A stretch of DNA of 64,000 nt from Escherichia phage APECc02. Below the pieces are notes generated by a model, which saw only the letters and a list, made by a program, of their open reading frames with translations, was not told the origin of the DNA and ran no database searches. The stretch lies in sequence record NC_041869.1; one strand, given 5' to 3'. A program made the translations under genes and the position numbers. How positions within the stretch are numbered: the stretch's first letter is position 1; the number at the start of each line of letters is the position of its first letter. Positions 5,070-41,893 of the stretch are shown here, one piece after another.

Positions 5070-5407
5070 GTTTGTGGAGAAATATAGTTAACTACGTGTG
5101 TGGCAATCCAACTCCTGAAGAGAAGGATGTTGTGATTCACGATTTTACTAAAAGATCCCGTGAAAAAGATCTACTGTTAACAAAGGTGACTGATAAAGAC
5201 CCTGCAGTAGGGGACTGGGCAGGTTTTGCGTTTACATCGGACAAATACACCTTTAACAAAGGTGACTACCTTGTTGTGGATTTTAACGAAGACATTGAGG
5301 GTGCTGAACCTTACTATCAGACCCTTATTGTTGCAGGGTGTGTTAATCTATCTGCAGGCATGCACAGTTTGATTCTTTTTGAGCTTGACTCTGAAGACCT
5401 TGAGTAG
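5066..5407 (+). CDS. hypothetical protein
   Basis: 113-aa ORF, ATGA overlap with helicase stop; no recognisable motif. Confidence 0.5.
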   Translation: MSLWRNIVNYVCGNPTPEEKDVVIHDFTKRSREKDLLLTKVTDKDPAVGDWAGFAFTSDKYTFNKGDYLVVDFNEDIEGAEPYYQTLIVAGCVNLSAGMHSLILFELDSEDLE

Positions 5408-5413
5408 TAAGAT
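5385..5413 (+). promoter_or_regulatory. putative sigma70-like promoter TTGACT-N17-TAAGAT
   Basis: -35 TTGACT at 5385-5390 inside end of upstream ORF, 17-nt spacer, weak -10; would drive MTase gene. Confidence 0.3.
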
Positions 5414-5424
5414 GTGAGTATAAA

Positions 5425-5441
5425 GGGGAGGCCTCCTCCCC
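5425..5441 (+). promoter_or_regulatory. 5' UTR stem-loop GGGGAGG/CCTCCCC
   Basis: 7-bp GC stem with 3-nt loop followed by CA-rich leader and SD AAGGAGA before ATG 5469; same architecture as the early-gene leaders downstream. Confidence 0.4.
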
Positions 5442-5468
5442 ACAAAAAACTAAGGAGAGCACCAAACG

Positions 5469-21795: not shown

Positions 21796-22041
21796 ATGAA
21801 CAAAGGGTGGACATTTGTAGACGGCGTTAAAAACATGCCTCTAGGAAAGTATATTGTAGCCATGGCAGATGAGAATGGCAAGGTTGATTTCGGAGTTTGC
21901 GAGGTTGTTCTTGCAGGATCTGGTGACTATGCTCACAAAACTGGGATAATTAACGGTCATTTCTACTTTGATTACAACCCTGTTGTGGCGTATATGGCTA
22001 TGCCAGAGTTCGAGCTCCCAAAGGAAGGTGCAGATGTTTAA
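21796..22041 (+). CDS. hypothetical protein
   Basis: 81-aa ORF with CAGGAGA RBS. Confidence 0.5.
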   Translation: MNKGWTFVDGVKNMPLGKYIVAMADENGKVDFGVCEVVLAGSGDYAHKTGIINGHFYFDYNPVVAYMAMPEFELPKEGADV

Positions 22042-22231
22042 GCTTAAATCTGCATGGAACATCGCTGTGGGGGACGAGATCCGTATCCCAGGTGGAAAGA
22101 CCATTATGAAAATATCTCGTATCGAGTACGAAGGTGATCGTGTATTTCATATCTTTGCAGAAGATGGTCGAGAAATTTATATACAGGCAGGCTCTCACAT
22201 CTATATTCGTAAGAAAGGGGAGGACAAATGA
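22034..22231 (+). CDS. hypothetical protein
   Basis: ATG overlapping upstream stop with AAGGAAGG RBS; track ORF 21968..22231 trimmed. Confidence 0.45.
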   Translation: MFKLKSAWNIAVGDEIRIPGGKTIMKISRIEYEGDRVFHIFAEDGREIYIQAGSHIYIRKKGEDK

Positions 22232-22557
22232 CAGAGATCATCATTTCAACTGCAGGGTATGTATTCCTGACAATCATTGCGCTGGCTATTCTGGTGGCGG
22301 TGTATGGATTTGTTATCCTTCCTATCCTTGAGACATTTAGTTTGTGTCGGTGTTGGAGAAAAGCTTACGGTCCACAACCATGGAAGGACTGGCCCCACCT
22401 GGTGCGCTTAGCGTTCTCTTATGCTTACGATCACTCCAGTAGTGCATGCATAACCGGATACCACGCCCACAACTGGAGCTGGGAAGGGTTGAGGAAATGG
22501 AATGTTACAAAGACCATACCTCTGCGCATGTACAAACCTAAAAACAAAGACAGCTGA
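22228..22557 (+). CDS. hypothetical membrane protein
   Basis: N-terminal hydrophobic helix YVFLTIIALAILVAVYGFVILPIL; GGGGAGGA RBS. Confidence 0.5.
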   Translation: MTEIIISTAGYVFLTIIALAILVAVYGFVILPILETFSLCRCWRKAYGPQPWKDWPHLVRLAFSYAYDHSSSACITGYHAHNWSWEGLRKWNVTKTIPLRMYKPKNKDS

Positions 22558-22869
22558 TACTTGAAAATTCCTGGCATATCAAGTGTAAGGGGGATTTCTA
22601 AAATGGATTTCCTCCTTTTGATATTTCACCAGGCTGGATATTTTAAAATTCTTAGAAAATCAGAAAATGGATCGAAAACTAAAATGGATTTTTCAGAGTA
22701 GGCGCGACAAGCTGAATAACTCATCCTATCGTTTGCACCATATTCCAGGCCACCATTATAGATTTCCCACACATGCTAACCTCCCTCTACTAGAACTTCC
22801 TCCACTTGCCCTTGACCTTCTATGGTAACAATCTAACCACTATCTTGAAGTTGCGGTGCAGCTTTCCAG

Positions 22870-22980
22870 GTACTCGATCTACTTTTCATTTCAGGGCTTG
22901 GATTTTCTGAAAATTTTTCTCGATAAATTTCTCAGTACTCGATCTGTTTTTCGTTTTCTGAATCGGATTTTCTGGAAATC
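22870..22980. repeat. about 65-bp imperfect tandem duplication in AT-rich ORF-free region
   Basis: GTACTCGATCT at 22870 and 22935; GGATTTTCTG(A/G)AAAT at 22900 and 22965; AAATGGAT repeated at 22601, 22665, 22682, 23035. Confidence 0.6.
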
Positions 22981-23165
22981 GTTCCGGATCTCGACCTGAA
23001 ATTTTTGGGGACGAAATCGATTTTTCGTTTTCAGAAATGGATTTTTAAAATTTCTATATGGGAATATTTTATGGGATACTGTTTTATAGGAAATTGTTAC
23101 GGAGGGTAATTAGCATGCTAACTAAATTTATGAAATGCGAAAAGTTCTCATTTAGAATTTTGAAT

Positions 23166-23352
23166 GATAATCATTCTCGTTTGCAGAATAACGGGCACCC
23201 CCGGTGATTGTCTCCCGGCCCCTACTGCCCCAGCTTGTTATTATAGTAACACACAGGACAAAGAAAGCAAGAAGTTTTTGCATAAATTTTTAGACGATAA
23301 TGATAATCGTTCTCATTTTATGCAGCGCCCATCCCCGGTGGTTGTCTCCCCC
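23166..23352. repeat. two copies of about 55-bp direct repeat
   Basis: GATAATC.TTCTC.TTT..GCAG...CCCCGGTG.TTGTCTCCC at 23166 and 23302. Confidence 0.55.
23278..23307 (+). promoter_or_regulatory. sigma70-like promoter TTGCAT-N17/18-GATAAT
   Basis: good -35/-10 pair reading into the second direct repeat; no ORF with RBS follows for about 250 nt. Confidence 0.4.
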
Positions 23353-23572
23353 GTCACCGGTGCCTGCCGTCCTTTCGATAGGTATATTGTGCCACCTGGC
23401 GTGGCCGCTGTCAACACTTTTCAAAAAATTTTTCTAACCTGATGCGCTAACCGCTGCAACCTGGCGGGGCCAGCCTGGCAGGACCTAACTGACCAGGTAG
23501 GAGAGAATGAAGGCTTATAATCTGGTGGGCCTATGCTATAGGATAGGTAACAATTGAAGAGGAGGTACAAAA

Positions 23573-23695
23573 ATGAAAGGTAATATGATCCCCCTGGAAA
23601 ATGTAGCGATTAATGACGCTGAGGCTATCGCCATGGTTGAAAGGCTATGGCGGGAGCGTTGGAACATAAAGAAGAGTACGAAAAATGGTGGTTAA
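23573..23695 (+). CDS. small protein, 40 aa (below ORF-track cutoff)
   Basis: ATG 8 nt after strong RBS GAAGAGGAGG; MKGNMIPLENVAINDAEAIAMVERLWRERW... Confidence 0.35.
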   Translation: MKGNMIPLENVAINDAEAIAMVERLWRERWNIKKSTKNGG

Positions 23696-23832
23696 CCTGG
23701 CGGGGGCGGCGGCTGGAGAATTCTGCCCAAAAAATAATTTTAACTAATGGTTGACAGCTCGGACAGTTCTTGTTATTCTTATCCTCGCAAGGTGAACAAC
23801 ACCAAACTAATTAACAGAGAGGATAAAAAATC

Positions 23833-24030
23833 ATGAACGCCTACGGAATCAAAGTACGTCGCAGCACTCGCCAGGTGGTCACCGATCAAATGGTTTGCCA
23901 GGTGGACGTAACCATCAACAACGGGCAAGGCCTTTATAAATTTCGTCGCGGTCATAGCTATACCCTGCAACAGCTTAATCGTTGCGCCCTGACAAAAGGT
24001 CAGATCAACCACTGGTTTAATAAAAAATAA
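23833..24030 (+). CDS. hypothetical protein
   Basis: 65-aa ORF with AGAGAGGA RBS. Confidence 0.5.
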   Translation: MNAYGIKVRRSTRQVVTDQMVCQVDVTINNGQGLYKFRRGHSYTLQQLNRCALTKGQINHWFNKK

Positions 24031-24033
24031 GTA

Positions 24034-24062
24034 TTGACATACAGTCTGAAACAAAATATACT
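24034..24062 (+). promoter_or_regulatory. sigma70-like promoter TTGACA-N17-TATACT
   Basis: -35 begins 4 nt after upstream stop; ATG 24095 lies 32 nt past -10. Confidence 0.65.
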
Positions 24063-24094
24063 GAAAGCACAAAAGACGCTAAGAGGATAAAATC

Positions 24095-24493
24095 ATGAAA
24101 ACCACAACCTTTAATTTTAATAATGCTGACTTCTCTTTTTCTGATGTTAAAAGCTGCCGCCGTGATCGCGGATTCTACAAGGCCTATAATCTGGTGGGCC
24201 TGGACGATGACAATAATTTGCACGAAGTAGCTGAGATCCGGTATTATGCCGCCGCCAGCGGTAACACTCATTACTGTGTATTTTGGATTCACGACAACAA
24301 GAACAATAAGTACGGTTATACTGGCGGCAAGGCGAGCGGTCACGGTTATGATAAAGCTAACGCAGCACTTGAGAGCGCATTAAATGCTATGGGGATCACT
24401 GCCGACGGCTGGATCTACGAAGAAGAGTTTTTGTCGGCACTTGCTGACCACCTAGGCTATAAAAAGCACATTGTAACATGCGCCCACGAATAA
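24095..24493 (+). CDS. hypothetical protein
   Basis: 132-aa ORF with AAGAGGA RBS. Confidence 0.5.
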   Translation: MKTTTFNFNNADFSFSDVKSCRRDRGFYKAYNLVGLDDDNNLHEVAEIRYYAAASGNTHYCVFWIHDNKNNKYGYTGGKASGHGYDKANAALESALNAMGITADGWIYEEEFLSALADHLGYKKHIVTCAHE

Positions 24494-24575
24494 AAATCAT
24501 TGACACGCTGCAAAATTTAAGTAAACTAGACACAAAAGGCGGGAATGTTTCCCGCCAGCACAAAGGAAAAAGATC

Positions 24576-24980
24576 ATGAATAAGAACGTACGCCGCATCA
24601 TGAACGAGTTGGCAAACGATGAAAAAATTATTGACATGCATTTGATCAACATTTGCCGCCGTTGTGTAACATATAACAACCGCGCCGCAAAAGCGCGTGA
24701 GATGAACGCAAAAGGCACCTTAAAGCCATTCCAGGTGGTGGTAAAGGCCATTAAAGATGTAACTAATACGGCAAACCAGGTACAGGGGAACACCAACGAG
24801 AGTACCAATATTGATCCGGCTTACATCATGAAACGGATCCGGACCTGCAAGAACAAAGAGCAAGTGTATAATGTCATAGACTGGTTGGATTCTATGGGAG
24901 ATGTGGTTTACAACAGGTTTTCTGCAGCTATCGAGATCCAGCTTGACAGGTTGGACGGTAAAGTACTGAAAACTTACTAA
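24576..24980 (+). CDS. hypothetical protein
   Basis: 134-aa ORF; upstream TTGACA, GGCGGGAA/TTCCCGCC 5' hairpin, AAAGGA RBS. Confidence 0.5.
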   Translation: MNKNVRRIMNELANDEKIIDMHLINICRRCVTYNNRAAKAREMNAKGTLKPFQVVVKAIKDVTNTANQVQGNTNESTNIDPAYIMKRIRTCKNKEQVYNVIDWLDSMGDVVYNRFSAAIEIQLDRLDGKVLKTY

Positions 24981-24982
24981 GT

Positions 24983-25028
24983 TTATTTTTAGATGGCCTT
25001 GACTTCAGGGCCATCAATAAAGTAAACT
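24983..25028. repeat. conserved palindromic intergenic element, copy 1
   Basis: TTATTTTTAGATGGCC-TTGACTTCAG-GGCCATCAATAAAGTAAACT; 7-bp arms GATGGCC/GGCCATC with TTGACT in loop; directly after stop codon. Confidence 0.7.
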
Positions 25029-25061
25029 AATCTCAACTAAGCGAAAAAGGGGGGCTTTAAG

Positions 25062-25181
25062 ATGAGCACTACACGCCAATACACAAAGGTAACTATTATC
25101 GTTTGCGTTGTCGGTTACATCCTGGCGCAAATGTTAATGAGTAGCGCTAACAGTTTTGCAAAATTTTTCTTAAATTTTTAA
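25062..25181 (+). CDS. small hydrophobic peptide, 39 aa (below ORF-track cutoff)
   Basis: ATG after AAAGGGGGG; MSTTRQYTKVTIIVCVVGYILAQMLMSSANSFAKFFLNF, one predicted TM helix. Confidence 0.35.
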   Translation: MSTTRQYTKVTIIVCVVGYILAQMLMSSANSFAKFFLNF

Positions 25182-25209
25182 TTGACAAACTAACTTAGAT
25201 CGATATACT
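25182..25209 (+). promoter_or_regulatory. sigma70-like promoter TTGACA-N16-TATACT
   Basis: followed by GGGAA/TTCCC hairpin, CA-rich leader, AAGGAGA SD and ATG 25261. Confidence 0.6.
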
Positions 25210-25260
25210 TAAACACGTAAACGGGAAAACTTCCCAGAGCACACAAAAGGAGAAAACACC

Positions 25261-25602
25261 ATGACTACTATGACCGCCGCAGAAAAAGCTATGCAGATCG
25301 CCGCGCTGAAAAAACAGATCGCAGACCTTGAGAACAAGATCGATAACTTTGAAATCGACGAGGACAAGTACGACGAAAACTATGATGAATGGTTAGACGA
25401 GATCTACGGCGAAATTATGATCGGAAACATTTCTTTTCTTCCGTCGCGTATCCTCAAGGAGCTAGATCCTATCGCTTACCGCTGCGGATTTAGCGACTAC
25501 ATCGACAGCCTGGATATTGAGGACGATGAAGAATACCAGGAACTACAGACAGAGTTAGAAGAAGCAAAAGAAGAGCTTGCGGAGCTGGAAGAAAACGAGT
25601 AA
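25261..25602 (+). CDS. hypothetical highly acidic protein
   Basis: 113 aa, Asp/Glu-rich second half (DIEDDEEYQELQTELEEAKEELAELEENE). Confidence 0.55.
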   Translation: MTTMTAAEKAMQIAALKKQIADLENKIDNFEIDEDKYDENYDEWLDEIYGEIMIGNISFLPSRILKELDPIAYRCGFSDYIDSLDIEDDEEYQELQTELEEAKEELAELEENE

Positions 25603-25604
25603 GA

Positions 25605-25650
25605 TTATTTTTAGATGGCCTTGACTTCAGGGCCATCAATAAAGTAAACT
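25605..25650. repeat. conserved palindromic intergenic element, copy 2
   Basis: identical to copy 1 over about 46 bp; directly after stop codon. Confidence 0.7.
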
Positions 25651-25691
25651 TTATACCGTTAACACTGAACTAATACAGAGGAGTTAAAACC

Positions 25692-25937
25692 ATGGCAGCA
25701 CTAATCACCAAATATTATGCCCCTACCAACACCAAAAGCGCCCGTATCATGGTAAAAGGCTTCGGACGTAAAAAGGTTTACACCTGGGATTATTCCCTAG
25801 ACATGGAAGACAACTACACCAACGCAATGACCGATTTTATTAATGAATTAAATAAGCAGATCTTGACAAGTTATAAAGTGACAGATATTGCTTATATAGG
25901 TGAAGGCGGGATCTGTTTTGTAGGCATTGTGAAATAG
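25692..25937 (+). CDS. hypothetical protein
   Basis: 81-aa ORF with AGAGGAG RBS. Confidence 0.5.
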   Translation: MAALITKYYAPTNTKSARIMVKGFGRKKVYTWDYSLDMEDNYTNAMTDFINELNKQILTSYKVTDIAYIGEGGICFVGIVK

Positions 25938-25985
25938 TTATTTTTTCGGTGGTCCTGGCTGCAGGGCCATCTATAAAGATAATTT
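25938..25985. repeat. diverged variant of the palindromic intergenic element
   Basis: TTATTTTTTCGGTGGTCCTGGCTGCAGGGCCATCTATAAAGATAATTTA; same position after stop codon, same flanks. Confidence 0.45.
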
Positions 25986-26011
25986 ATTAACACCATGAAA
26001 GGAGAAAGTAC

Positions 26012-26359
26012 ATGATCAGCGGGGCTAGTTTTATTATTGGCGCTATTGCTACGACTTTAATTGTAAACAAGATCCAATCTAAAAACGAAAAAGATAGCAA
26101 CGCGCTCACAGAATACCCATTTTGGGTATTCAACGACAACGAAGACTACATAATCAAGTACAAAGATGAGAGAGGCGACCAGGTAACACCGCGACCGATC
26201 CCAGCTTACAAGATGCAAGAAACACTCTACCGCCTAAAGGCCGGAGGCGCAAAGATCGTAGACTTTTGGGGATATGATTGCAAGGATCAGGAGGTCATAA
26301 AACGTCGTATCCGGGCGATTCAGGCAAATATTGAAATTAGTAAAGGGGGAAATTTATGA
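26012..26359 (+). CDS. hypothetical protein with N-terminal TM helix
   Basis: 115-aa ORF; AAAGGAGAAA RBS. Confidence 0.5.
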   Translation: MISGASFIIGAIATTLIVNKIQSKNEKDSNALTEYPFWVFNDNEDYIIKYKDERGDQVTPRPIPAYKMQETLYRLKAGGAKIVDFWGYDCKDQEVIKRRIRAIQANIEISKGGNL

Positions 26360-26553
26360 AAATTAATTTCGAAAAAATTGTAAAGCGCCGCCGCGATTCC
26401 GAAGAGCTGCCGGAACGCCGCCAGCGTAACAATAAACTGAATAAACCGAAAAGGTTCGGGAAGATCTGGAGGAATCACTATGATCGCAAATTACCGGGCC
26501 TGCTTTTGGAACGTGAACGACAGGCGGAACGATACCGCCACAAAGGCAAATAA
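26356..26553 (+). CDS. hypothetical small basic protein
   Basis: 65 aa, Arg/Lys-rich; ATGA overlap. Confidence 0.5.
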   Translation: MKINFEKIVKRRRDSEELPERRQRNNKLNKPKRFGKIWRNHYDRKLPGLLLERERQAERYRHKGK

Positions 26554-26561
26554 CAACCAAC

Positions 26562-26590
26562 GCCCCGCCATTGTGCGGGGCTTTTTATTT
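26562..26590 (+). terminator. rho-independent terminator
   Basis: hairpin GCCCCGC-CATTGT-GCGGGGC followed by TTTTTATTT. Confidence 0.65.
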
Positions 26591-26734
26591 CTATCCCGCC
26601 GATAGCGCCCCTGGTTGGCCCTACAAGCGCCATAAAGGCCCCTACCTATGCAATCCCCTTTCTTAACCTGAAAACAGCGTCTAGGGCCGTTTTATGGCGT
26701 TAAAAATATTATTGACAGTGATTCTATTTAAAGC

Positions 26735-26763
26735 TTGACACCTTGGGATAGTCCGGATATACT
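26735..26763 (+). promoter_or_regulatory. sigma70-like promoter TTGACA-N17-TATACT
   Basis: second of two tandem TTGACA boxes (first at about 26713). Confidence 0.6.
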
Positions 26764-26798
26764 AACCACATCAAAGCAAGAAGGAAGGAGTAAACGCC

Positions 26799-27059
26799 AT
26801 GCGTAAATTAAAAAATTTTGATAAAGTCGATGTTGTCCTGAATAATTTTTACTACTGCAATAATAAAGCCGTTTGGTGGCGTGATAGTTCCACCGATAAA
26901 GTTAAAGCGCGCTTTCTCCAAGGGCACTGGCAAGGCCGTCCAGTGATTAAAATCCTTGGGCAATTGGTAGCGTTTAAAAATTGCCGCCGTGTTGATGACG
27001 TTGAAGAGATTCTAAACATTTTACGCCACAATAATTTAAAAAATAGTGTTGACAAGTAA
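26799..27059 (+). CDS. hypothetical protein
   Basis: 86-aa ORF with GGAAGGAG RBS. Confidence 0.5.
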   Translation: MRKLKNFDKVDVVLNNFYYCNNKAVWWRDSSTDKVKARFLQGHWQGRPVIKILGQLVAFKNCRRVDDVEEILNILRHNNLKNSVDK

Positions 27060-27076
27060 GTCTCAATAAGTATACT
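27049..27076 (+). promoter_or_regulatory. sigma70-like promoter TTGACA-N16-TATACT
   Basis: -35 overlaps end of upstream ORF; followed by GGCGGGAA/TTCCCGCC hairpin and CA-rich leader. Confidence 0.6.
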
Positions 27077-27133
27077 TAAACACACAGGCGGGAAGTTTTC
27101 CCGCCACTAACAAAGAAAATAGGAGAAAATATC

Positions 27134-27757
27134 ATGACCACCGTTAACATTACTACAGGTTACAATTTATCTTTCGACGTGCTGACCGACGAACAAAAAG
27201 AAAAAGCTGTTGAAATGGTCCGCGAAAGAGAAGAACACAGCGGGGATAACTTTTTTGCAGAAAGTGTAATTGAGTACTATAAAGAATATGTTTTTCCAGA
27301 GTATGGCCTTGAAGATACCGAAATACATTGGTCCGGCTTTTGGTGTCAAGGCGACGGCGCATCAATTAGCGCTGAAAATGTAAACTTAGAAAAATTCTTG
27401 CGTAAAGTAAAGGCCCTGACCAAGTTCCGATCAATTCGTCACTTGTTCGGCACAATGCACGATGGCGAGTTATCAGCCAGTGTTGAACGCGACAAGTACA
27501 GCCATTATAGCCATGAAAACACTGTAAGCGGATACATTGATACCACCTGGCTAGATCTGACCGCCAAACAAGAAAACAAAGTGGAAGACCTGGAAGAGCT
27601 GATCACCGAGACGGTACGGGAGCTATCCCGCAAGGTTTACGTAGACCTGGAGGAGGCCTATCTTGAACAGTTTACTACCGAAAACCTGATCGGCCTTATT
27701 GAGGCCAATGATTGGCGGTTTGATGTGGATGAATATGGCGAGATGACTTTTTCATAA
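27134..27757 (+). CDS. hypothetical acidic protein
   Basis: 207-aa ORF; conserved-looking WSGFWCQGDGA segment; no confident family assignment. Confidence 0.55.
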   Translation: MTTVNITTGYNLSFDVLTDEQKEKAVEMVREREEHSGDNFFAESVIEYYKEYVFPEYGLEDTEIHWSGFWCQGDGASISAENVNLEKFLRKVKALTKFRSIRHLFGTMHDGELSASVERDKYSHYSHENTVSGYIDTTWLDLTAKQENKVEDLEELITETVRELSRKVYVDLEEAYLEQFTTENLIGLIEANDWRFDVDEYGEMTFS

Positions 27758-27765
27758 ATAAAGTG

Positions 27766-27793
27766 TTGCAATAACCTAAAAACCTGCTATATT
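27766..27793 (+). promoter_or_regulatory. sigma70-like promoter TTGCAA-N16-TATATT
   Basis: followed by GGGGCAA/TTGCCCC hairpin, CACAAAACAAAGAGGAA leader. Confidence 0.55.
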
Positions 27794-27846
27794 AAAACTC
27801 AAGGGGGCAAGACGTTTGCCCCACACAAAACAAAGAGGAAAACATT

Positions 27847-28227
27847 ATGAAAAACACTACCAAGGCTATTGACACCGTTATGTTTAACCTGGTTACCTTT
27901 CGCGAGGATATGAAAGATCTTCCACGTGAAACAGTGTGCGATCACATTGAAAACTATCGCAAACTAATCAAAGAGTTGCCCCTAAAACGTGACCAGTACG
28001 CGGCTAATGCTATGCTTAATGCCATGATCAAAAAGATGATTCAGTGTGATTTAACTCTGGCCTATGATTATGCAGGCGGTCGTTTTGCAGTATACAATCA
28101 GCCCGTGCCCGGTATGGGCACCACCGAAGAATTGCACGCGCTTAATCTAAAACAAGACGTATGGGATAACATGCCCCGCGTGGTGGTGTGGGCAGAAAGC
28201 GGAAAGATTTACGGCGATAATTTTTAA
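27847..28227 (+). CDS. hypothetical protein
   Basis: 126-aa ORF. Confidence 0.5.
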   Translation: MKNTTKAIDTVMFNLVTFREDMKDLPRETVCDHIENYRKLIKELPLKRDQYAANAMLNAMIKKMIQCDLTLAYDYAGGRFAVYNQPVPGMGTTEELHALNLKQDVWDNMPRVVVWAESGKIYGDNF

Positions 28228-28291
28228 TCAGGTAACAGGCGGCATATTTGCCGCCTTATTGTTAAACAGAACTGCAAAAGAGGTACATAGA

Positions 28292-28663
28292 ATGGAATTT
28301 ATTATTTTGGCTGTAGTAGTTGCCTTGTTCAACGCCTGGATCGCTGGCAAGATGGGTAGATCCGCCTTTTTATGGTTTATTATATCTATTTTCCTGGGGG
28401 TGGTTGCAACTATTGTACTTGTTATCCTTGCAATTGTTGACAAGGGGAATAATAGAAAGGGTAAAGTATTTTCAGACCTGTACGACGCTCAAACGTTTGT
28501 CAACGCCTATTATAGTGATCTTCCAGTCTCCCTACGCTGCAGCCTGGCACAACAGGTTTTTGATGAGGCTAAAACCAGAGATCAAGCCCATGAGATATGT
28601 TTAACTGAGGCGGATCGCCTATTTGAGAGGAATAGAAAATATGTGGGCCAACCGTTTAAATAA
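28292..28663 (+). CDS. hypothetical membrane protein
   Basis: two hydrophobic helices; ATG after AAAGAGG (track ORF 28259..28663 trimmed). Confidence 0.5.
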   Translation: MEFIILAVVVALFNAWIAGKMGRSAFLWFIISIFLGVVATIVLVILAIVDKGNNRKGKVFSDLYDAQTFVNAYYSDLPVSLRCSLAQQVFDEAKTRDQAHEICLTEADRLFERNRKYVGQPFK

Positions 28664-28886
28664 TGCCACGTTAATTAATCCCTTTAGTGAAGATTTGAAG
28701 CCAGCCGCCTGGCGTGACGGATTCAATAACGAACGCTTTATTTTCAAGCCTGATCTTGAGGAATTTTATAACAATGGATCGAACAACAGCGGAGATAATT
28801 TTTCTTGGGATGTGCGTGGTGATGGTACTCCTGGGGGCCATTGTAAACCACGTCACTACTACCAGGAGGAAAGGGGGAGACGATGA
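28641..28886 (+). CDS. hypothetical protein
   Basis: ATG after GAGAGGAA overlapping upstream gene end; track ORF 28623..28886. Confidence 0.4.
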   Translation: MWANRLNNATLINPFSEDLKPAAWRDGFNNERFIFKPDLEEFYNNGSNNSGDNFSWDVRGDGTPGGHCKPRHYYQEERGRR

Positions 28887-29002
28887 CAACCAAGGATAAG
28901 CCCCGTACCGATAAGGCGCGCCGGGTTATGGTATGGCTTGAGATCATCGCCCTTGAAATATTGCTAGGCGTAGGGATGTACTTTATCGCTGTAAGTAACT
29001 AA
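28883..29002 (+). CDS. small membrane peptide, 39 aa (below ORF-track cutoff)
   Basis: ATGA overlap with upstream stop; hydrophobic core VMVWLEIIALEILLGVGMYFIAV; followed by terminator. Confidence 0.3.
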   Translation: MTTKDKPRTDKARRVMVWLEIIALEILLGVGMYFIAVSN

Positions 29003-29006
29003 GAAC

Positions 29007-29034
29007 GGCCCCCGATCATGGGGGCCTATCTTTT
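29007..29034 (+). terminator. rho-independent terminator
   Basis: hairpin GGCCCCC-GATCAT-GGGGGCC followed by TATCTTTT then a 12-A run. Confidence 0.65.
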
Positions 29035-29060
29035 AAAAAAAAAAAATTTCTTCCGGGGTG

Positions 29061-29089
29061 TTGCAATCCGGTCCGGAATGTGGATAATA
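29061..29089 (+). promoter_or_regulatory. sigma70-like promoter TTGCAA-N17-ATAATA
   Basis: spacer contains TGTGGATAA (DnaA-box-like 9-mer); followed by GGGGA/TCCCC hairpin and leader. Confidence 0.6.
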
Positions 29090-29144
29090 ACAATCAACGG
29101 GGAGCTAATCCCCACCACCACAAAAACCAGAAAGGAGAAACAAA

Positions 29145-29345
29145 ATGAGCAACAATATCCGCGTTATTAACTTCAAAAAAGAAGAAAAAATTGCCGTGCT
29201 GATTGACGGTCAAGAAATCTTCAAGGGCGACTATGAAGATCATCAAACGGCGATTAGTATCACTCGCGTGATTGGTTACCATAATTTTTACCCCCAAGGC
29301 GCTGAGGCAGCGGTTAAACGAATCAAAGAGATTGTAGGCCTGTAA
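29145..29345 (+). CDS. hypothetical protein
   Basis: 66-aa ORF with AAAGGAGAAA RBS. Confidence 0.5.
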   Translation: MSNNIRVINFKKEEKIAVLIDGQEIFKGDYEDHQTAISITRVIGYHNFYPQGAEAAVKRIKEIVGL

Positions 29346-29348
29346 AAT

Positions 29349-29393
29349 TTATTTTTAGATGGCCTTGACTCCAGGGCCATCAATAAAGTAAAT
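29349..29393. repeat. conserved palindromic intergenic element, copy 3
   Basis: as copies 1 and 2 with one loop substitution (TTGACTCCAG) and AAAT end. Confidence 0.7.
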
Positions 29394-29439
29394 TTAAACC
29401 CTGTTAAAAATACCACGCAGTTAACAAGGAGTGATAGAC

Positions 29440-29739
29440 ATGTTTATCCAGGCTAATAATCTTTATTTCTTTGATGGTCAGATCGTAGACGGTGTGGAAG
29501 TGGAGATCACCGGGTGCCCTGGCGGTCAGGCTATGACTTTTCGGAATAATGCCTTTGATGATTCTCATATCGTTATGAGAATGGAAGTTACGAAGCTGGA
29601 CGACAAGAAAACACTTATTGACTATTCTGTGAAAGATCATCCAGACTACCGCATGATCCATGGCGATTTGTGCATTGTTGACCGTGACAAGGTGGGCGGC
29701 ATTGTGATCGCTATTGTGAACGATGTTTTCTCAAACTAA
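29440..29739 (+). CDS. hypothetical protein
   Basis: ATG 8 nt after AAGGAG; track ORF 29431..29739. Confidence 0.5.
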   Translation: MFIQANNLYFFDGQIVDGVEVEITGCPGGQAMTFRNNAFDDSHIVMRMEVTKLDDKKTLIDYSVKDHPDYRMIHGDLCIVDRDKVGGIVIAIVNDVFSN

Positions 29740-29756
29740 TTTCAGCAGGTGATTTT

Positions 29757-30107
29757 ATGAAAGTCAAACTATATTACCTTAATGAGCTTAACCCCCTTGC
29801 CCAGGTCCGCGCCCTGGCTAATACCTTGATTTGTGAGAAATCTGCATATTGTGTTGAGCTTAACGCCATGCGTGAACGTCTCAAAGGGGGTTACTTTGAC
29901 ATCCATGCTGCAATCAACGGCCTGAATATGGAATTTATACGCTTACGTAACAGCCGCCGGAATCTGGCAAGAATGGAACAAGATCCGGCCCACCTTCGTA
30001 AGCTGGTTATTGAAAATCATCTGATGTTTAATGCCGAGGGTGATTATTACCATTTTCACCGCAAACGCTGGTACCGTGGCGGCAATACAGGCAAGAATGC
30101 AAAATAA
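29757..30107 (+). CDS. hypothetical protein
   Basis: 116-aa ORF. Confidence 0.5.
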   Translation: MKVKLYYLNELNPLAQVRALANTLICEKSAYCVELNAMRERLKGGYFDIHAAINGLNMEFIRLRNSRRNLARMEQDPAHLRKLVIENHLMFNAEGDYYHFHRKRWYRGGNTGKNAK

Positions 30108-30142
30108 GGCCCCAGGCAGGGCCTGCAGCGATATAATCACAT

Positions 30143-30176
30143 AAAGGCTATGCGGTTGCATGGCCTTTATTATTTT
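30143..30176 (+). terminator. rho-independent terminator
   Basis: imperfect hairpin AAAGGC(T)ATGC-GGTT-GCATGGCCTTT followed by TTTATTATTTT. Confidence 0.5.
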
Positions 30177-30223
30177 AGCGTTACAGCGGCCCCAAGGCGC
30201 TTAAAAAATTTTTAAAGAAGTAC

Positions 30224-30252
30224 TTGCATCAAGTCCTACAATATGGATAATA
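30224..30252 (+). promoter_or_regulatory. sigma70-like promoter TTGCAT-N17-ATAATA
   Basis: followed by GGGGGC/GCCCCC hairpin and leader before ATG 30309. Confidence 0.55.
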
Positions 30253-30308
30253 GGACGTGTCAGGGGGGCGGCCCCCAATCATTAACCGGATAGATAGGAG
30301 TTAAAATC

Positions 30309-30593
30309 ATGGCTATTGTCACCGTTGGCGATGTAGTGGAAATGGAAGCAAAATACTTAAAAGCGGGTATGCATATCCTACGGAATGATCAAGAATTGTT
30401 ATTAACGATGGTAGACTATAATCCCGGCCAGGATTATCCAAGCATCGACTACTTTTTTGAGTATGTTGATGAAGAATTGAAAGAGGATGAGGCTTATCGG
30501 GGTGAATTCTGCAATTTCTTTTGCCCTGATGAGGTTGTAAAAGTTATCTATCAACCTGGAGTACCTTTCCCGCTGCACGCTATCAATAAATAA
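30309..30593 (+). CDS. hypothetical protein
   Basis: 94-aa ORF with ATAGGAG RBS. Confidence 0.5.
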   Translation: MAIVTVGDVVEMEAKYLKAGMHILRNDQELLLTMVDYNPGQDYPSIDYFFEYVDEELKEDEAYRGEFCNFFCPDEVVKVIYQPGVPFPLHAINK

Positions 30594-30647
30594 ACCTGGT
30601 GGGGCCGAAAAGGCCCCAATTATGAAAATAAAGAGAGGTAAATCATC

Positions 30648-30881
30648 ATGATGGAACAAATTAAACGCGCTGAGGCTATTAATGGCAATGTGATCTATTT
30701 TGTCAGCAAAAACGAAAAAGGCGTACCATATGCGGCGGTAATAGTACAACCTGACGGCGATTATTGGTTTACTGTATACGGATCTTATTCTTTCGGGCGT
30801 CCGGTTCATGATAGAATTTTGAAAGTAGCAAATCCGACCGGGAAAAATATCACAGCAGAAAAATTTTTTGAAAATAGTTGA
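30648..30881 (+). CDS. hypothetical protein
   Basis: 77-aa ORF with AGAGAGG RBS. Confidence 0.5.
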   Translation: MMEQIKRAEAINGNVIYFVSKNEKGVPYAAVIVQPDGDYWFTVYGSYSFGRPVHDRILKVANPTGKNITAEKFFENS

Positions 30882-30905
30882 CATGACCATATAAGACTGT
30901 AATAT
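30878..30905 (+). promoter_or_regulatory. sigma70-like promoter TTGACA-N16-TAATAT
   Basis: -35 overlaps upstream stop codon; followed by GGGGC/GCCCC hairpin and CACAAAGAGGA leader. Confidence 0.6.
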
Positions 30906-30957
30906 ATAAATCAAAGAGGGGCAACAAGCCCCACCAACCACAAAGAGGATAAAAATC

Positions 30958-31137
30958 ATGGCTATTATTGCAAAGACTGAGATCGTAGGCTTAGATTCTA
31001 TTCTCCTCGCATATGAGGAAGCTATAGAAATGTATGTGGTTTCCTATGGTGAGTATATTCGTGAATATAAATCTATTGATCTGGCTTTTGAATGTTATAT
31101 TCGCCAGGTAAATAAAGCATATGATGATTATCGTTAA
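30958..31137 (+). CDS. small protein, 59 aa (below ORF-track cutoff)
   Basis: full promoter-hairpin-leader-SD architecture upstream; MAIIAKTEIVGLDSILLAYEEAIEMYVVSYGEYIREYKSIDLAFECYIRQVNKAYDDYR. Confidence 0.45.
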   Translation: MAIIAKTEIVGLDSILLAYEEAIEMYVVSYGEYIREYKSIDLAFECYIRQVNKAYDDYR

Positions 31138-31143
31138 AATAGT

Positions 31144-31171
31144 TTGACAACAATTACAAATCGGGTAGAAT
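31144..31171 (+). promoter_or_regulatory. sigma70-like promoter TTGACA-N16-TAGAAT
   Basis: 6 nt after upstream stop. Confidence 0.6.
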
Positions 31172-31223
31172 GTATTTCGTAGGGCGGGGCAATAAGGCAA
31201 CGCCCATTAATGAGGGTAGAATC

Positions 31224-31328
31224 ATGTTAGAGAAAATTTTCACGGTTGTAGTAGTTGGCCTGGCATTATCGGTTGGATGGGTTGCAACTATGGCTAACAT
31301 GATCCTATCTTCCCACGGTATCGGTTAA
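31224..31328 (+). CDS. small membrane peptide, 34 aa (below ORF-track cutoff)
   Basis: ATG after GAGGGTAGAA; MLEKIFTVVVVGLALSVGWVATMANMILSSHGIG. Confidence 0.3.
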   Translation: MLEKIFTVVVVGLALSVGWVATMANMILSSHGIG

Positions 31329-31338
31329 GGTGAATCAA

Positions 31339-31554
31339 ATGATCACGAATAAAACAGGTAAAACGGAATTCTTGCGCGGCTTGCAGGTCGGCAAGCCTGA
31401 GATCTGGCATTGCACTAAAACACCACGTGACGAAATGAAAGACTTCACCGCCACGCTGCAACGGGTAAAGATATCCATCACGCAGAAAAAGGCCTTGATA
31501 GTGGTGGAAGGTGAGATCCCTCAAACCGTTGTTATAGTTGAGCGTACAGCATAG
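31339..31554 (+). CDS. hypothetical protein
   Basis: ATG after AAGGTGA; track ORF starts at GTG 31330. Confidence 0.45.
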   Translation: MITNKTGKTEFLRGLQVGKPEIWHCTKTPRDEMKDFTATLQRVKISITQKKALIVVEGEIPQTVVIVERTA

Positions 31555-31645
31555 TTTAATTTATACCGATACCCGAAAATTAACCAACAAAGCATAAACA
31601 GGCGGTTACCGCCGCCTTAAACGTAGCAGAAAGAGGATAGACACA

Positions 31646-31930
31646 ATGAAAAAGATGATCGCAGTGGTTGCCCTGGTTGTTGGACTTAATGCGCCTGTAA
31701 TGGCTAAAGAGCTGGCAAAAGAGGTTAATCTAACGGATATTCATGCCGTCAATCAAATCGGGGTTACTTATCGCTTATGCCTTGCCGCTAAAACTTTTAA
31801 TGACGGCACAACAGAGTACTACGGATTCGAGGGTATCCGGTGCGGTGAGCTTGCTCGCGACCTTAAGGAAGATCCAGACCTGGAAGATCTGCCCATCACC
31901 GTAAACGGTAAAGCTTACGTAAACCGTTAA
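31646..31930 (+). CDS. hypothetical secreted or periplasmic small protein
   Basis: signal peptide MKKMIAVVALVVGLNAPVMA; AAAGAGGA RBS. Confidence 0.55.
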   Translation: MKKMIAVVALVVGLNAPVMAKELAKEVNLTDIHAVNQIGVTYRLCLAAKTFNDGTTEYYGFEGIRCGELARDLKEDPDLEDLPITVNGKAYVNR

Positions 31931-31932
31931 CC

Positions 31933-32067
31933 ATGAGAAAGATAATCATCACCTTGGGGATTGTGGCGGGATCGCTGGCGCTCTTTCCCCTTATGGTTAG
32001 GCATGTGCTGATCAGTATTGTCCTGATGGTCAGTGATCTATTGGAAACGGTTGGCACCTTGTTTTAA
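31933..32067 (+). CDS. small membrane peptide, 44 aa (below ORF-track cutoff)
   Basis: ATG 2 nt after upstream stop; MRKIIITLGIVAGSLALFPLMVRHVLISIVLMVSDLLETVGTLF. Confidence 0.3.
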   Translation: MRKIIITLGIVAGSLALFPLMVRHVLISIVLMVSDLLETVGTLF

Positions 32068-32079
32068 AGAGCGGTAAAA

Positions 32080-32271
32080 ATGAATATCGAACAAGTTAGA
32101 AAGGTATTAGCGGTACTGCGTTACCATAATCATAGAAAGGTCATAGACGATCCTGATTATGTTGATTCAAGCCTGGAAGGGGATACACTACAAGCCATAA
32201 GTAACATGCAAGAATTGCTAAAGCGCATGACAGAGAAAAACCGACCGGACTACATAGGCGAAAAAATATAA
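32080..32271 (+). CDS. hypothetical protein
   Basis: 63-aa ORF with AGAGCGG RBS. Confidence 0.45.
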   Translation: MNIEQVRKVLAVLRYHNHRKVIDDPDYVDSSLEGDTLQAISNMQELLKRMTEKNRPDYIGEKI

Positions 32272-32288
32272 TCCTTATTGACTAGAAA

Positions 32289-32315
32289 ACAGGGCTTGCA
32301 ATGGTCCTGTTTTTT
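32289..32315 (+). terminator. putative rho-independent terminator
   Basis: stem ACAGG/CCTGT around TTGCAATGGT loop followed by TTTTTT. Confidence 0.4.
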
Positions 32316-32399
32316 GTTATACTTATTCCACGGCAGGCACCTGGTGACGGGGGGAGACAACCACCGGGCCTGCCTGTCATATAAGAACTATAAAAACCG

Positions 32400-32428
32400 T
32401 TGACATCTGCCAGGGGGTGGGGTAACAT
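32400..32428 (+). promoter_or_regulatory. sigma70-like promoter TTGACA-N17-TAACAT
   Basis: followed by GGGCA/TGCCC hairpin and CACACAACAACCAGAAGAGAGGAAAA leader. Confidence 0.5.
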
Positions 32429-32482
32429 TTATCTTGAAGGGGCAAAAGTGCCCACACAACAACCAGAAGAGAGGAAAACATT

Positions 32483-32755
32483 ATGTCAAGCTGGATTAAT
32501 CAAGAAGTCGAATCACGTTTTAATGCTATTTGGGATCTCATCGAAAAAGAAGACGGCACATCAAGCCCCTACCTCAACAATTTGGAATTCCATTTTGTGG
32601 AAGCGATGAACGCAGAACATGATCACGAAGGTGGCGCGGATGAGTTCGCTAAAGGTTATGGCTTTAACAATGCCAACGAAATGATCGAGGCGGTAGTACT
32701 CCAGGCTGAGGAAGATTATCAATTAAAAACGCTTGAATTCTGCCGCCGCAAGTAA
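32483..32755 (+). CDS. hypothetical acidic protein
   Basis: 90-aa ORF. Confidence 0.5.
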   Translation: MSSWINQEVESRFNAIWDLIEKEDGTSSPYLNNLEFHFVEAMNAEHDHEGGADEFAKGYGFNNANEMIEAVVLQAEEDYQLKTLEFCRRK

Positions 32756-32815
32756 TAAGATAATGACACGGGCCAAAAGGCCCACTAATCAGAACCACAC
32801 AAAGAGAGAAAGAAA

Positions 32816-33034
32816 ATGACAACCCGTAAAATTAAAGTTGTTTGCATTGAATCGACTGGGGGCGCTTTTGTAGTTGGTCAGGAATATAATGCGGTTTTAA
32901 TGGGTACGGATTGGAAGGTTAAAGGCCTTAATGGTTACGAGTACGGCACTACTTGCGGCTTGCGTGGTCGAATCGGATACGTGAGTTTAGACAATAAAGA
33001 AAAATTTGTTTTCGACACCGTTGTGAGTAAATAG
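32816..33034 (+). CDS. hypothetical protein
   Basis: 72-aa ORF; GGGCC/GGCCC hairpin and CACACAAAGAGAGAAAGAAA leader upstream. Confidence 0.5.
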   Translation: MTTRKIKVVCIESTGGAFVVGQEYNAVLMGTDWKVKGLNGYEYGTTCGLRGRIGYVSLDNKEKFVFDTVVSK

Positions 33035-33111
33035 CATGAATTGCTAAAGACTGATCTGCGAACTGCTGTATTATCAACTAATCAAAACGAACCACATAAA
33101 GAGGAAACATC

Positions 33112-33375
33112 ATGAAACGTCTGGATCAGCTTAAATTAGTTCAGTACATGGCCTACAGAATTCTTGAAGTCCAGAAAGGTAGCAAAAAAGAGGTTTGCGA
33201 GAAAGCTTATAAGATCTTCACTCGTAAAAAAGATGATTGGATGTTACGCCAGACCAAAAAGGCTGACATCTTGGGGTACCTGGAAGAAGAGATCCGCCTT
33301 GAAGAGCAAGAAGAGATCCGCCGTAGTGAGGCAGATTATCAGGCAGCTTGGGAAAACTGGATGAGCAACAAATAA
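33112..33375 (+). CDS. hypothetical protein
   Basis: 87-aa ORF with AAAGAGGAAA RBS; last plus-strand gene of the block. Confidence 0.5.
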   Translation: MKRLDQLKLVQYMAYRILEVQKGSKKEVCEKAYKIFTRKKDDWMLRQTKKADILGYLEEEIRLEEQEEIRRSEADYQAAWENWMSNK

Positions 33376-33394
33376 TACAACAAGGTGCACGGTC

Positions 33395-33420
33395 AGGGGC
33401 TTAAAGCCCCTTTCTTTTTG
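33395..33420 (+). terminator. rho-independent terminator
   Basis: hairpin AGGGGC-TTAAA-GCCCCT followed by TTCTTTTTG. Confidence 0.65.
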
Positions 33421-34028
33421 TCTCCTCTTTTCCTACCACAAATGGCCCCGCCTGGCAAATGGAATAATCAACAAGCCAGCAATTAACCCCACTGTACAAA
33501 CATACATATAAAATAACTATTGCATAATTTTTCATTGTGTGGTAGCAGGGCCATTTTTACACGTTTTTCCTTCCAAAATTGCACGTAATGCAGCATTTGC
33601 ACAAAATTTAACCTGATGCATATCTTCAATAGCTTGTCAACAACTAAAAATCTTTATAAGTCATACACTTACATAACTACAAAAGCGTTTTCTACGTGAA
33701 AAATCGAGTATAACTATAGCCGCCAGATCTCAGAATTTACGTACGCTCGCCATTCTATAGCCTGCTAAGCATTTATTCCAACCATAGAATAACGGAATAG
33801 TCAATACCTGCATAAAATAATTATTCGTGTAAACTGCATAACATAAATCGGCCCAGGTGTCAACATTTTTCGTAAACAGTCTGGAATTGTCACGTTAGGT
33901 TACCATAAGCAGAGAAATCTTTAGTCGTCTAATGTTTACTGTACGTTACTATACTAACTGAAATCATTAGATGACTAATAGAAAGATAAGAAATAATTAA
34001 CAATACAATTATTTTATCTGTAACAATA

Positions 34029-34205
34029 AGGCAACTATGCAAACGAATGGCATGGCGCGACGGAGTCGCGACATAATATAAAAGCAGTAACCATCACCCC
34101 CGTGATAGTTTGTCTGCAAACTATTAATCAGATCATAGTTGCCTTGTATTTAGTTAATCATGACATAACAAGCAAGGCAACTATAGATCTGCTAATAGTT
34201 GCCCT
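34029..34205. repeat. four copies of 11-mer AAGGCAACTAT in alternating orientation (candidate protein-binding sites)
   Basis: plus-orientation at 34029 and 34174, inverted at 34136 and 34195; 34135-34146/34173-34184 form a 12-bp perfect inverted repeat 26 bp apart. Confidence 0.6.
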
Positions 34206-34317
34206 GCTTTTATATTATGTCATAGAAACACCCGAAGGGGTGACCAAAGGTTACCTGGCATAGCCAGTGAAAGATTATTAACTTGCTAATCTTTATCATG
34301 CAAACGAATGGCATGGC
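34037..34317. repeat. 20-bp perfect direct repeat ATGCAAACGAATGGCATGGC
   Basis: copies at 34037-34056 and 34298-34317. Confidence 0.65.
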
Positions 34318-34338
34318 TTATCATTTCTGTGTAAATAG

Positions 34339-34390
34339 TCTATGCGTAAACTGTCAAGGCGTAAACAATCTATGCGTGAACAGTGAAACA
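34339..34390. repeat. short direct repeats TCTATGCGT(A/G)AAC and GCGTAAAC
   Basis: TCTATGCGTAAAC at 34339, GGCGTAAACA at 34359, TCTATGCGTGAAC at 34369. Confidence 0.5.
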
Positions 34391-34423
34391 TGAAATAATA
34401 ACAGTTGTTATTGTGTCATATTG

Positions 34424-34505
34424 TGCTGCAGCGTGTTGAGTATGTTTAAGGTGCCCAGTATGTCACCATTATGTCACTATTGTGTCATAGTGTCATAGTA
34501 TGTCA
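34424..34505. repeat. iteron-like array of TGTCA(C/T) pentamers at about 10-11 bp phasing
   Basis: TGTCA at 34424, 34461, 34472, 34483, 34491, 34501 (plus 34362, 34525). Confidence 0.6.
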
Positions 34506-41811: not shown

Positions 41812-41893
41812 AACGTGTTCCTTTTAAAGAAGAGGGGACCAAACCCTCTTTGAAAACAATGATACTAAATCTGAAGCGTTGTGTCAACAGTTT

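Follow-up and report, generated by a model that had tools for sequence, protein, structure and literature searches.

What does a short hairpin accomplish when it recurs near the start of one small phage gene after another, each seemingly with a promoter of its own? The question is raised by Escherichia phage APECc02 (sequence record NC_041869.1), of which we analyzed a stretch of 64,000 nucleotides (nt), hereafter the window, that carries a block of 28 small genes of 34–207 amino acids (aa) at positions 23750–33420 (curated between 23833 and 33375). An earlier note on this DNA had described the block as about 25 transcription units, each composed of a sigma70 promoter, a hairpin just downstream of the predicted transcript start (+1), a CA-rich leader and a Shine-Dalgarno (SD) sequence, and had proposed that the hairpins protect the mRNAs. 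Judged by its sequence, the window is that of a Vequintavirus (rV5-like phage), the flagged stretch matching the Vequintavirus phages naswa, pangalan, slur16 and rV5 at 94–96% identity over 95–100% of its length. We are confident in describing the region as a set of cassettes of the type known from T4-like phages as promoter-early stem-loops (PeSLs). The best overall explanation, which we favor with modest confidence, is that of a hyperplastic block of such cassettes, in which the stem-loops would act both near the 5′ end of the mRNA and in read-through transcripts, and in which genes are exchanged by recombination between cassettes.

First, the layout is real and far beyond chance. Inspection of the upstream region of each of the 28 genes yields about 17 sigma70-like promoters, fewer than the number of units initially proposed; sites were accepted at 8 or more of 12 matches, and those found have 8–11 of 12 with spacers of 16–18 nt. 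In the main class (10 of the 17), a hairpin begins 8–13 nt past the −10 element (mode 10), and the order is promoter, hairpin, leader, SD sequence and ATG. Four other promoters belong to a family of four copies of a 51-nt repeat, TTATTTTTAGATGGCCTTGACTTCAGGGCCATCAATAAAGTAAAC, whose hairpin encloses the −35 element with stems (GATGGCC/GGCCATC) that overlap it, and three promoters are bare. All 10 downstream hairpins and all four over the −35 are G-rich in the 5′ arm and C-rich in the 3′ arm, with folding free energies (ΔG) of −4 to −16 kcal/mol, and A/T-rich stretches such as aaaaatagtg, ttatttttag and aaaatagt lie upstream of the promoters in alignments of the relatives. Under a strict hairpin definition, 8 of the 17 leaders have a hairpin 8–13 nt past the −10, as compared to 0.09 on average, and never more than 2, in 2000 shuffles. 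The arrangement is also concentrated here, being found in 10 of 17 promoter units in the region versus 3 of 35 in the rest of the window (Fisher p = 2e-4).

Much of the initial description is borne out by these counts. The hairpins it singled out are present (GGCGGGAA/TTCCCGCC at 24538–24556 and 27087–27105, GGGGCAAG/TTTGCCCC at 27803–27822, GGGGA/TCCCC at 29099–29113), each 10 nt past a TTGACA/TTGCAA-N16–17-TAnnnT promoter and ahead of an A/C-rich leader, SD sequence and ATG, and the same layout does precede a DNA methylase gene outside the block, at 5469 (Pfam N6_N4_Mtase, E 4e-42). The placement of the hairpin just past the predicted +1 applies to the 10 main-class promoters but not to the four with a hairpin over the −35 or the three bare ones, and three further hairpins have no promoter at all. 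The leaders that follow the hairpins are A/C-rich as stated, but are better termed A-rich and U-poor, their composition being 55% A and 11% T (25% T for the region taken as a whole).

Second, the block has been remodeled at its cassettes. We compared positions 22000–34500 with 11 relatives and inspected the junctions of 14 distinct events; in about 10 of these a junction lies within a cassette or regulatory hairpin, and at least seven are bordered by a cassette-derived repeat of 11–53 nt. In phage magaca, the pair of genes enclosed by the repeat copies D1a and D1b is absent, and a single chimeric repeat remains, flanked on the left as D1a is and on the right as D1b is. The 31144 site holds a single cassette in the window, two in A51.2 and slur16, and three in naswa and nimi; every additional gene comes with a promoter and a hairpin of its own (GGCGGcaatgatGCCGC, GCGGGAAtacTTCCCGC), and the crossovers fall in the −35, the −10/start region or the leader, with 22–53 nt of common sequence at the junctions. 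The gene at 32816–33034 is absent from seven relatives, lost between two leader repeats of 26–36 nt. In rV5, naswa, RudolfGeigy, A51.2 and inoa, two copies of the 33395 terminator enclose an extra 420-nt gene, an extra 312-nt gene stands at the 32283–32323 site in many relatives, and MiataMamis carries a 538-bp insertion at the −35 of 26713, the first of the tandem promoters. Two points temper this picture. One indel (29754–30096) has no cassette at either junction. Moreover, a viable junction has to lie between genes, where most of the space is taken up by cassettes, so that junction positions alone are weak evidence and the flanking repeats are the real evidence; for this reason, the use of junction position as a statistical test was dropped. 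Comparison of the genomes nevertheless shows that recombination between cassette copies has brought genes into related phages, removed them and exchanged them, and this role in recombination is the best-documented property of the elements here.

Third, the hairpin is maintained as RNA. Each cassette was aligned with its counterparts from 13 related phages; as a scan of IMG/VR with the 207-aa protein of the block for related loci gave only two close ones, covariation was judged from these relatives and from paralogous cassettes. Loops are free to vary (tgt/aaca/aca/tac at 24538; gctaa/aca/aaca/gaca at 29099; aaaa/ggga at 32770), and compensatory stem changes are seen at 24538, 27803, 29099 and 30263. 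In relatives, the 30263 stem passes from GGGGG/CCCCC to GGAGG/CCTCC and the 24538 stem from GGCGGGAA/TTCCCGCC to GGCGGTTGA/TCAGCCGCC, while the 29099 stem is lengthened to GGGGAG/CTCCCC. When 48 hairpin variants were folded, their mean ΔG was −11.4 kcal/mol, versus −6.3 kcal/mol with an equal number of random substitutions (Wilcoxon p = 1e-13), and among 31 distinct hairpins 19 are more stable as plus-strand RNA and four as minus-strand RNA (p = 3e-4); hairpin variants and cassettes share descent, however, so these p-values overstate independence. The stems contain 14 G·U pairs. In the diverged repeat D1c, whose −35 is lost, three transitions in one arm of the hairpin (25948) preserve pairing solely on the plus-strand RNA, with two G·U pairs. 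Together, the G·U pairs, the strand asymmetry and the stability of the variants speak for a role in the sense transcript and not in duplex DNA. Comparative analysis thus shows the hairpin to be conserved as a sense-strand RNA structure, and its function is probably exerted at the RNA level.

Fourth, the hairpin keeps a fixed distance from the promoter. We assembled 30 distinct cassettes: those of the window and of its Vequintavirus relatives, together with cassettes from a Certrevirus, a Seunavirus and, in another subfamily, a Justusliebigvirus. In 13 of them the hairpin begins 10 nt past the −10, and in 21 the gap is 9–11 nt (standard deviation 1.5), although the sequence in between is otherwise dissimilar. 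Of 29 cassettes, 20 have C at position 7 and 25 have a purine at position 8; in 23 of the 29 the two positions form a pyrimidine–purine step. A pyrimidine at −1 followed by a purine at +1 is the usual context of E. coli start sites. Given this context at positions 7 and 8, the transcript is predicted to start about 3 nt (3–4) before the hairpin, and we infer that the main-class stem-loop would lie about 3–4 nt into the message.

How might such an element work? The sigma70 promoter of each cassette would be read by the host polymerase, and the main-class hairpin would form the 5′-proximal stem-loop of the cassette's own mRNA, where it would most likely slow 5′-end-dependent decay (RppH, RNase E). 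In read-through transcripts from upstream cassettes, hairpins of all classes would sit between genes, potentially blocking 3′ exonucleases and keeping the ribosome-binding leader free of upstream context. Protection of the 5′ end as the main function of the downstream hairpins is a tentative assignment, plausible but short of probable. The repeat-class and promoter-less hairpins more likely serve as insulators or as barriers to 3′ exonucleases.

The proposal of mRNA protection put forward in the earlier note therefore stands in part: the fixed 10-nt spacing, the selection on sense RNA and the fit to ompA and papA (discussed below) all agree with it, and several points weigh against it. Three hairpins have no promoter and the four of the repeat class precede their own start site, so that 5′-end protection cannot explain them. 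Once engaged at a 5′ end, RNase E has little difficulty in getting past an ordinary stem-loop (PMC9943677); protection thus hinges on a very short 5′ overhang, for which 3–4 nt is borderline. The predicted +1 is itself read from two cues, the −10 and the C-A context. Neither PeSL cassettes, the nearest known system, nor recombination entered the account given in the note. In the literature searched, we found no transcript-start, half-life or termination data for rV5-like phages or Vequintavirus.

A bolder idea, which we regard as speculative and a long shot, is that a hairpin 3–4 nt into the transcript, together with the U-poor leader, acts as a self-marking device that lets phage early mRNAs resist phage-accelerated decay, the cassette also serving as a recombination handle. 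The Srd protein of phage T4 stimulates RNase E against host mRNA. The rV5-like phages encode an Srd-like protein, gp11 in rV5 (rV5 genome paper). If the idea were true, the 5′ structure would tell phage messages from host messages.

Among the alternatives, the one that survives best, doubtful as we find it, holds that the hairpins are only intergenic barriers in long read-through transcripts (a stop for 3′ exonucleases or a processing mark), their position near the start site being functionless and inherited from a shared ancestral cassette. It would readily accommodate the hairpins without promoters (28237, 30601, 31600) and those upstream of the start in the repeat class, as well as the retention of the D1c hairpin through G·U pairs despite the loss of its −35; furthermore, stem-loops are known to stabilize segments of E. 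coli operons selectively (PMC10667835). What it does not accommodate is the 10-nt spacing, which is held in 30 cassettes from two phage subfamilies whose start regions have diverged beyond recognition. In the absence of a constraint tied to the promoter, small indels should have blurred this distance.

Could the hairpins instead terminate or attenuate transcription arriving from upstream cassettes, isolating each gene? This is the role proposed by the PeSL authors, who reported that one RB49 stem-loop lowered downstream lacZ as much as rrnB T1 (PMC2839356), a result that favors an attenuator role in RB49 and counts against the account preferred here; the repeat-class and promoter-less hairpins, moreover, would be met by read-through transcripts only. 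Yet a promoter and terminator scan finds five separate hairpins with T-rich tails (26562, 29007, 30141, 32283, 33395), which cut the region into about five blocks, and it is these five only that combine a GC-rich hairpin with a directly following U tract, as intrinsic terminators do. None of the 17 cassette and intergenic hairpins has a U tract, an A and then an A/C-rich tail following every cassette hairpin instead. In addition, the main-class hairpin stands between its own strong promoter and its gene, where an efficient terminator, 25 nt past the promoter, would silence that gene. By the sequence rule for intrinsic terminators, the cassette hairpins are shown not to be canonical ones, although the promoter-less hairpin at 28237–28256 may be a weak terminator, and we consider termination unlikely as their general function.

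Less likely still is that the inverted repeats act as DNA, either as the operator of a phage regulator that shuts early promoters or as the target of a recombination protein. The repeat-class GATGGCC/GGCCATC, invariant across copies and phages and overlapping the −35, would suit such a role. The main-class stems, in contrast, vary in sequence and length between cassettes without a common recognition sequence, the G·U pairs and strand asymmetry fit RNA better than duplex DNA, and the crossovers fall in the −35, −10, hairpin or leader, as expected of plain homology and not of a specific site. It is scarcely credible that a dedicated factor recognizes the hairpins, whether as boxB-like antitermination sites or as N4-type hairpin promoters used by a phage RNA polymerase, since, for all their short stems, 3–5-nt loops and nearness to transcript starts, the loops vary freely in sequence and length among cassettes and related phages (UGU, AAC, GUU, GCUAA, GCGG, AACAA, AAAG, AAAA), every such hairpin is preceded by a near-consensus sigma70 promoter, and a search of the whole window against Rfam at gathering thresholds gave zero matches. 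The free variation of loop and stem sequences led us to reject the operator, boxB-like and N4-type readings alike.

The individual elements are collected in Table 1.

Table 1. Promoters, hairpins and terminators of the cassette block, and the cassette before the methylase gene (offset, distance in nt from the −10 to the hairpin; promoters as −35, spacer, −10)
Feature	Position	Strand	Promoter	Hairpin or stem	Start codon and remarks
Main-class cassette	24500–24575	+	−35 TTGACA 24500, −10 TAAACT ending 24527	GGCGGGAAtgtTTCCCGCC, 24538–24556, ΔG −13.1	A-rich leader and SD; ATG 24576
Main-class cassette	25182–25260	+	TTGACA-16-TATACT	GGGAAaacTTCCC, 25223–25235, offset 13	Leader; ATG 25261
Main-class cassette	27049–27133	+	TTGACA-16-TATACT	GGCGGGAAgttTTCCCGCC, 27087–27105, offset 10	Repeat family D7; ATG 27134
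Main-class cassette	27766–27846	+	TTGCAA-16-TATATT	GGGGGCAAGacgTTTGCCCC, 27803–27822, offset 10	ATG 27847
Main-class cassette	29061–29144	+	TTGCAA-16-GATAAT	GGGGAgctaaTCCCC, 29099–29113, offset 10	After terminator 29007–29026; ATG 29145
Main-class cassette	30224–30308	+	TTGCAT-16-GATAAT (8/12)	GGGGGGcgGCCCCC, 30263–30276, offset 11	ATG 30309
Main-class cassette	30878–30957	+	TTGACA-16-TAATAT, −35 overlapping stop codon of upstream gene	GGGGCaacaaGCCCC, 30918–30932, offset 12	ATG 30958
Main-class cassette	31144–31223	+	TTGACA-16-TAGAAT	GGGCG...CGCCC, 31182–31205, offset 10	Recombination hot spot; ATG 31224
Main-class cassette	32400–32482	+	TTGACA-17-TAACAT	GGGCAaaagTGCCC, 32440–32453, offset 11	ATG 32483
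Main-class cassette, weak promoter	32733–32815	+	TTGAAT-17-TAAGAT (8/12)	GGGCCaaaaGGCCC, 32770–32783, offset 8	ATG 32816
Cassette of the same layout outside the block	5385–5468	+	TTGACT 5385, spacer 17, TAAGAT 5408	GGGGAGGcctCCTCCCC, 5425–5441, offset 11	Leader; ATG 5469
Repeat class, D1a	24978–25061	+	−35 TTGACT, −10 TAAACT	GATGGCCTTGacttCAGGGCCATC, 24992–25015, around −35	51-nt repeat 24978–25028; ATG 25062
Repeat class, D1b	25600–25691	+		25614–25637	98% identical to D1a; ATG 25692
Diverged repeat, D1c	25934–26011	+	−35 lost (CTGGCT), −10-like GATAAT	GGTGGTCCTGgctgCAGGGCCATC, 25948–25971	ATG 26012
Repeat class, D1d	29344–29439	+	−35 TTGACT, −10 TAAATT	29358–29381, over −35	ATG 29440
Bare promoter	23751–23832	+	TTGACA-17-TATTCT	None	ATG 23833
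Bare promoter	24034–24094	+	TTGACA-17-TATACT	None	ATG 24095
Tandem bare promoters	26707–26798	+	TTGACA at 26713 and 26735, −10 TATACT ending 26763	None	ATG 26799
Promoter-less hairpin before gene	28237–28256	+	None		Followed by TTATTGTT
Promoter-less intergenic hairpin	30601–30617	+	None	GGGGCCgaaaaGGCCCC	No U tract
Promoter-less intergenic hairpin	31600–31617	+	None	AGGCGGttacCGCCGCCT	
Intrinsic terminator	26562–26590	+		GC stem and TTTTTATTT	Ends first cassette block
Terminator-like hairpin	29007–29036	+			T-rich tail
Terminator-like hairpin	30141–30180	+		13 pairs	T-rich tail
Terminator hairpin	32283–32323	+	−35 TTGCAA in loop, −10 TATACT ending 32323		T run
Terminator	33395–33420	+			End of rightward gene block

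Genes run rightward until about 33400 and leftward past that point. In the rV5 record, the counterpart of the block comprises open reading frames (ORFs) 196 to 165, every one annotated as hypothetical, and the only other annotations in the matching stretch are five promoters and two terminators; sigma70-type promoters and terminators are listed in the rV5 genome paper, which makes no mention of promoter-adjacent hairpins. The ten largest products of the block fall into PHROG families of unknown function only, and a Pfam scan of 15 products (nine of the ten largest, that of 30309–30593 being left out, and six others) gave one match, the 65-aa product of 26356–26553 to Phage_1_1 (T7 gene 1.1 protein; E 9e-10). 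The largest gene, 27134–27757, encodes a 207-aa protein of PHROG 5162 (unknown function) with distant relatives at 25–31% identity on uncultivated viral contigs; its DNA also matches jumbo phages at 67–69% identity (Salmonella SD-6_S16, Escherichia G17), which indicates that single genes of the block are common to very different phages.

The terminator at 32283–32316 holds in its loop the −35 of a promoter, TTGCAA-16-TATACT (32296–32385, plus strand), followed 8 nt on by a 43-nt structured element, GGCAGGCACCTGGTGACGGGGGGAGACAACCACCGGGCCTGCC. The 62 nt at 32324–32385 that contain it fold at a ΔG of −25.6 kcal/mol (z −2.5), and this structured stretch has no ORF after it and no Rfam match. A near-identical copy lies on the minus strand (23334–23414) behind a minus-strand promoter (23414–23386), which has 27 nt of upstream and −35 sequence in common with the 30878 promoter. 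The two copies thus flank the variable region on both sides, and they may encode small RNAs. Just before the cassette block, 22560–23570 is a gene-poor stretch of about 1 kb with three degenerate direct repeats of about 65 bp at 22860–23045, and may be the "non-coding" box of the rV5 genome map. Farther away, leftward promoter-like sites at 41887–41830 and 37632–37570 (both minus strand) are followed by T-tailed hairpins (AAGAGGGtttggtcCCCTCTTcttt; GAGGGGGGGcttaGGCCCCTCTTTTT) before the next gene, a promoter-then-terminator-like order that differs from the cassettes of the flagged region.

How, finally, do these elements compare with known systems? They can be likened to the 5′-terminal stem-loop stabilizers of E. 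coli mRNA in the ompA and papA 5′ untranslated regions (Emory, Bouvet, Arnold, Bricker, Belasco; as cited in PMC3997798). The likeness lies in a stable hairpin within a few nt of the 5′ end (predicted in the present case), an unstructured leader and a strong ribosome-binding site. Here, however, the 5′ ends are predicted, the overhang of about 3–4 nt stands at the reported limit for protection, and the element is repeated over many genes and is also a substrate for recombination. A different likeness is to the morons of lambdoid phages, units of promoter, gene and terminator (Hendrix et al., 2000, in the discussion given in PMC2839356): both concern single accessory genes that have their own promoter and vary between related phages. 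Morons end in true terminators and lack conserved flanking repeats that mediate movement, whereas in the present block the hairpin comes before the gene and has no U tract, and crossovers take place in the cassettes themselves.

The closest relatives in kind are the PeSLs of the T4-like phages RB49/phi1, T4/PST and KVP40/nt-1 (Arbiol et al., 2010, PMC2839356; Comeau et al., 2014, PMC4122927). A PeSL consists of an A/T-rich stretch, a near-consensus sigma70 promoter, a Gn-loop-Cn stem-loop, and the SD sequence and start codon of an orphan gene; PeSLs cluster in hyperplastic regions, where genes are inserted and deleted by recombination (PMC2839356; PMC4122927), and their hairpins occupy five positions, among them over the −35 and downstream of the −10 (PMC2839356). 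Recombination of adjacent PeSL cassettes also yields encapsidated mini-circles, followed by inverse PCR on infected cells and virions (PMC2839356). Four of the defining traits recur in the window: a promoter with an A/T-rich stretch, a Gn-loop-Cn stem-loop, an intergenic setting in a cluster of orphan genes, and crossovers at the cassettes. Both systems share the composite intergenic cassette, from A/T-rich stretch, sigma70 promoter and Gn-loop-Cn through an A/C-rich leader to SD and ATG; in both it is clustered in a variable block of small orphan genes, the hairpins fall into several positional classes (over the −35 and past the −10 among them), and where close relatives differ by the gain or loss of a gene, the crossovers lie inside cassettes.

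There are also differences. PeSLs belong to T4-like myoviruses (Straboviridae), whereas the window is from a Vequintavirus and the lineage here comprises Vequintavirinae and Stephanstirmvirinae. Direct inspection of 18 RB49 cassettes found the same parts, with the hairpin mostly between the −35 and −10 or over the −10, while its commonest place here is 10 nt past the −10, within the transcript; nor is there sequence homology between the cassettes of the window and those of RB49. The non-T4-like host and the missing homology make this a membership by architecture and behavior, not by descent. RB49p266 (in the RB49 9697–9830 region) is a 36%-identical homolog of the product of 32483–32755, although RB49 was not among the strong tBLASTn hits with that product, and it stands behind a terminator and an RB49-type promoter and leader, with no hairpin. 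Co-transfer of gene and cassette between T4-like and rV5-like phages was rejected on this ground; the cassettes are lineage-specific, each lineage having fitted the gene with its own.

In the literature searched, which did not include the 2011 PVP-SE1 genome paper, we found no report of PeSL-type cassettes in rV5-like phages or of PeSLs outside T4-like phages. The block is best classed with the PeSLs, as a representative from a second, rV5-like phage lineage, and it extends promoter-plus-hairpin cassettes from T4-like phages to unrelated large phages of E. coli, Salmonella and Pectobacterium, many of which sit in phage therapy collections. Natural isolates of these phages are direct evidence that accessory genes come and go at the cassettes. 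As compact, context-independent expression units, the cassettes also offer predictable insertion sites for engineering. The sense-RNA evidence and the fixed place after the start further suggest a role for the stem-loop other than the terminator assumed for PeSLs.

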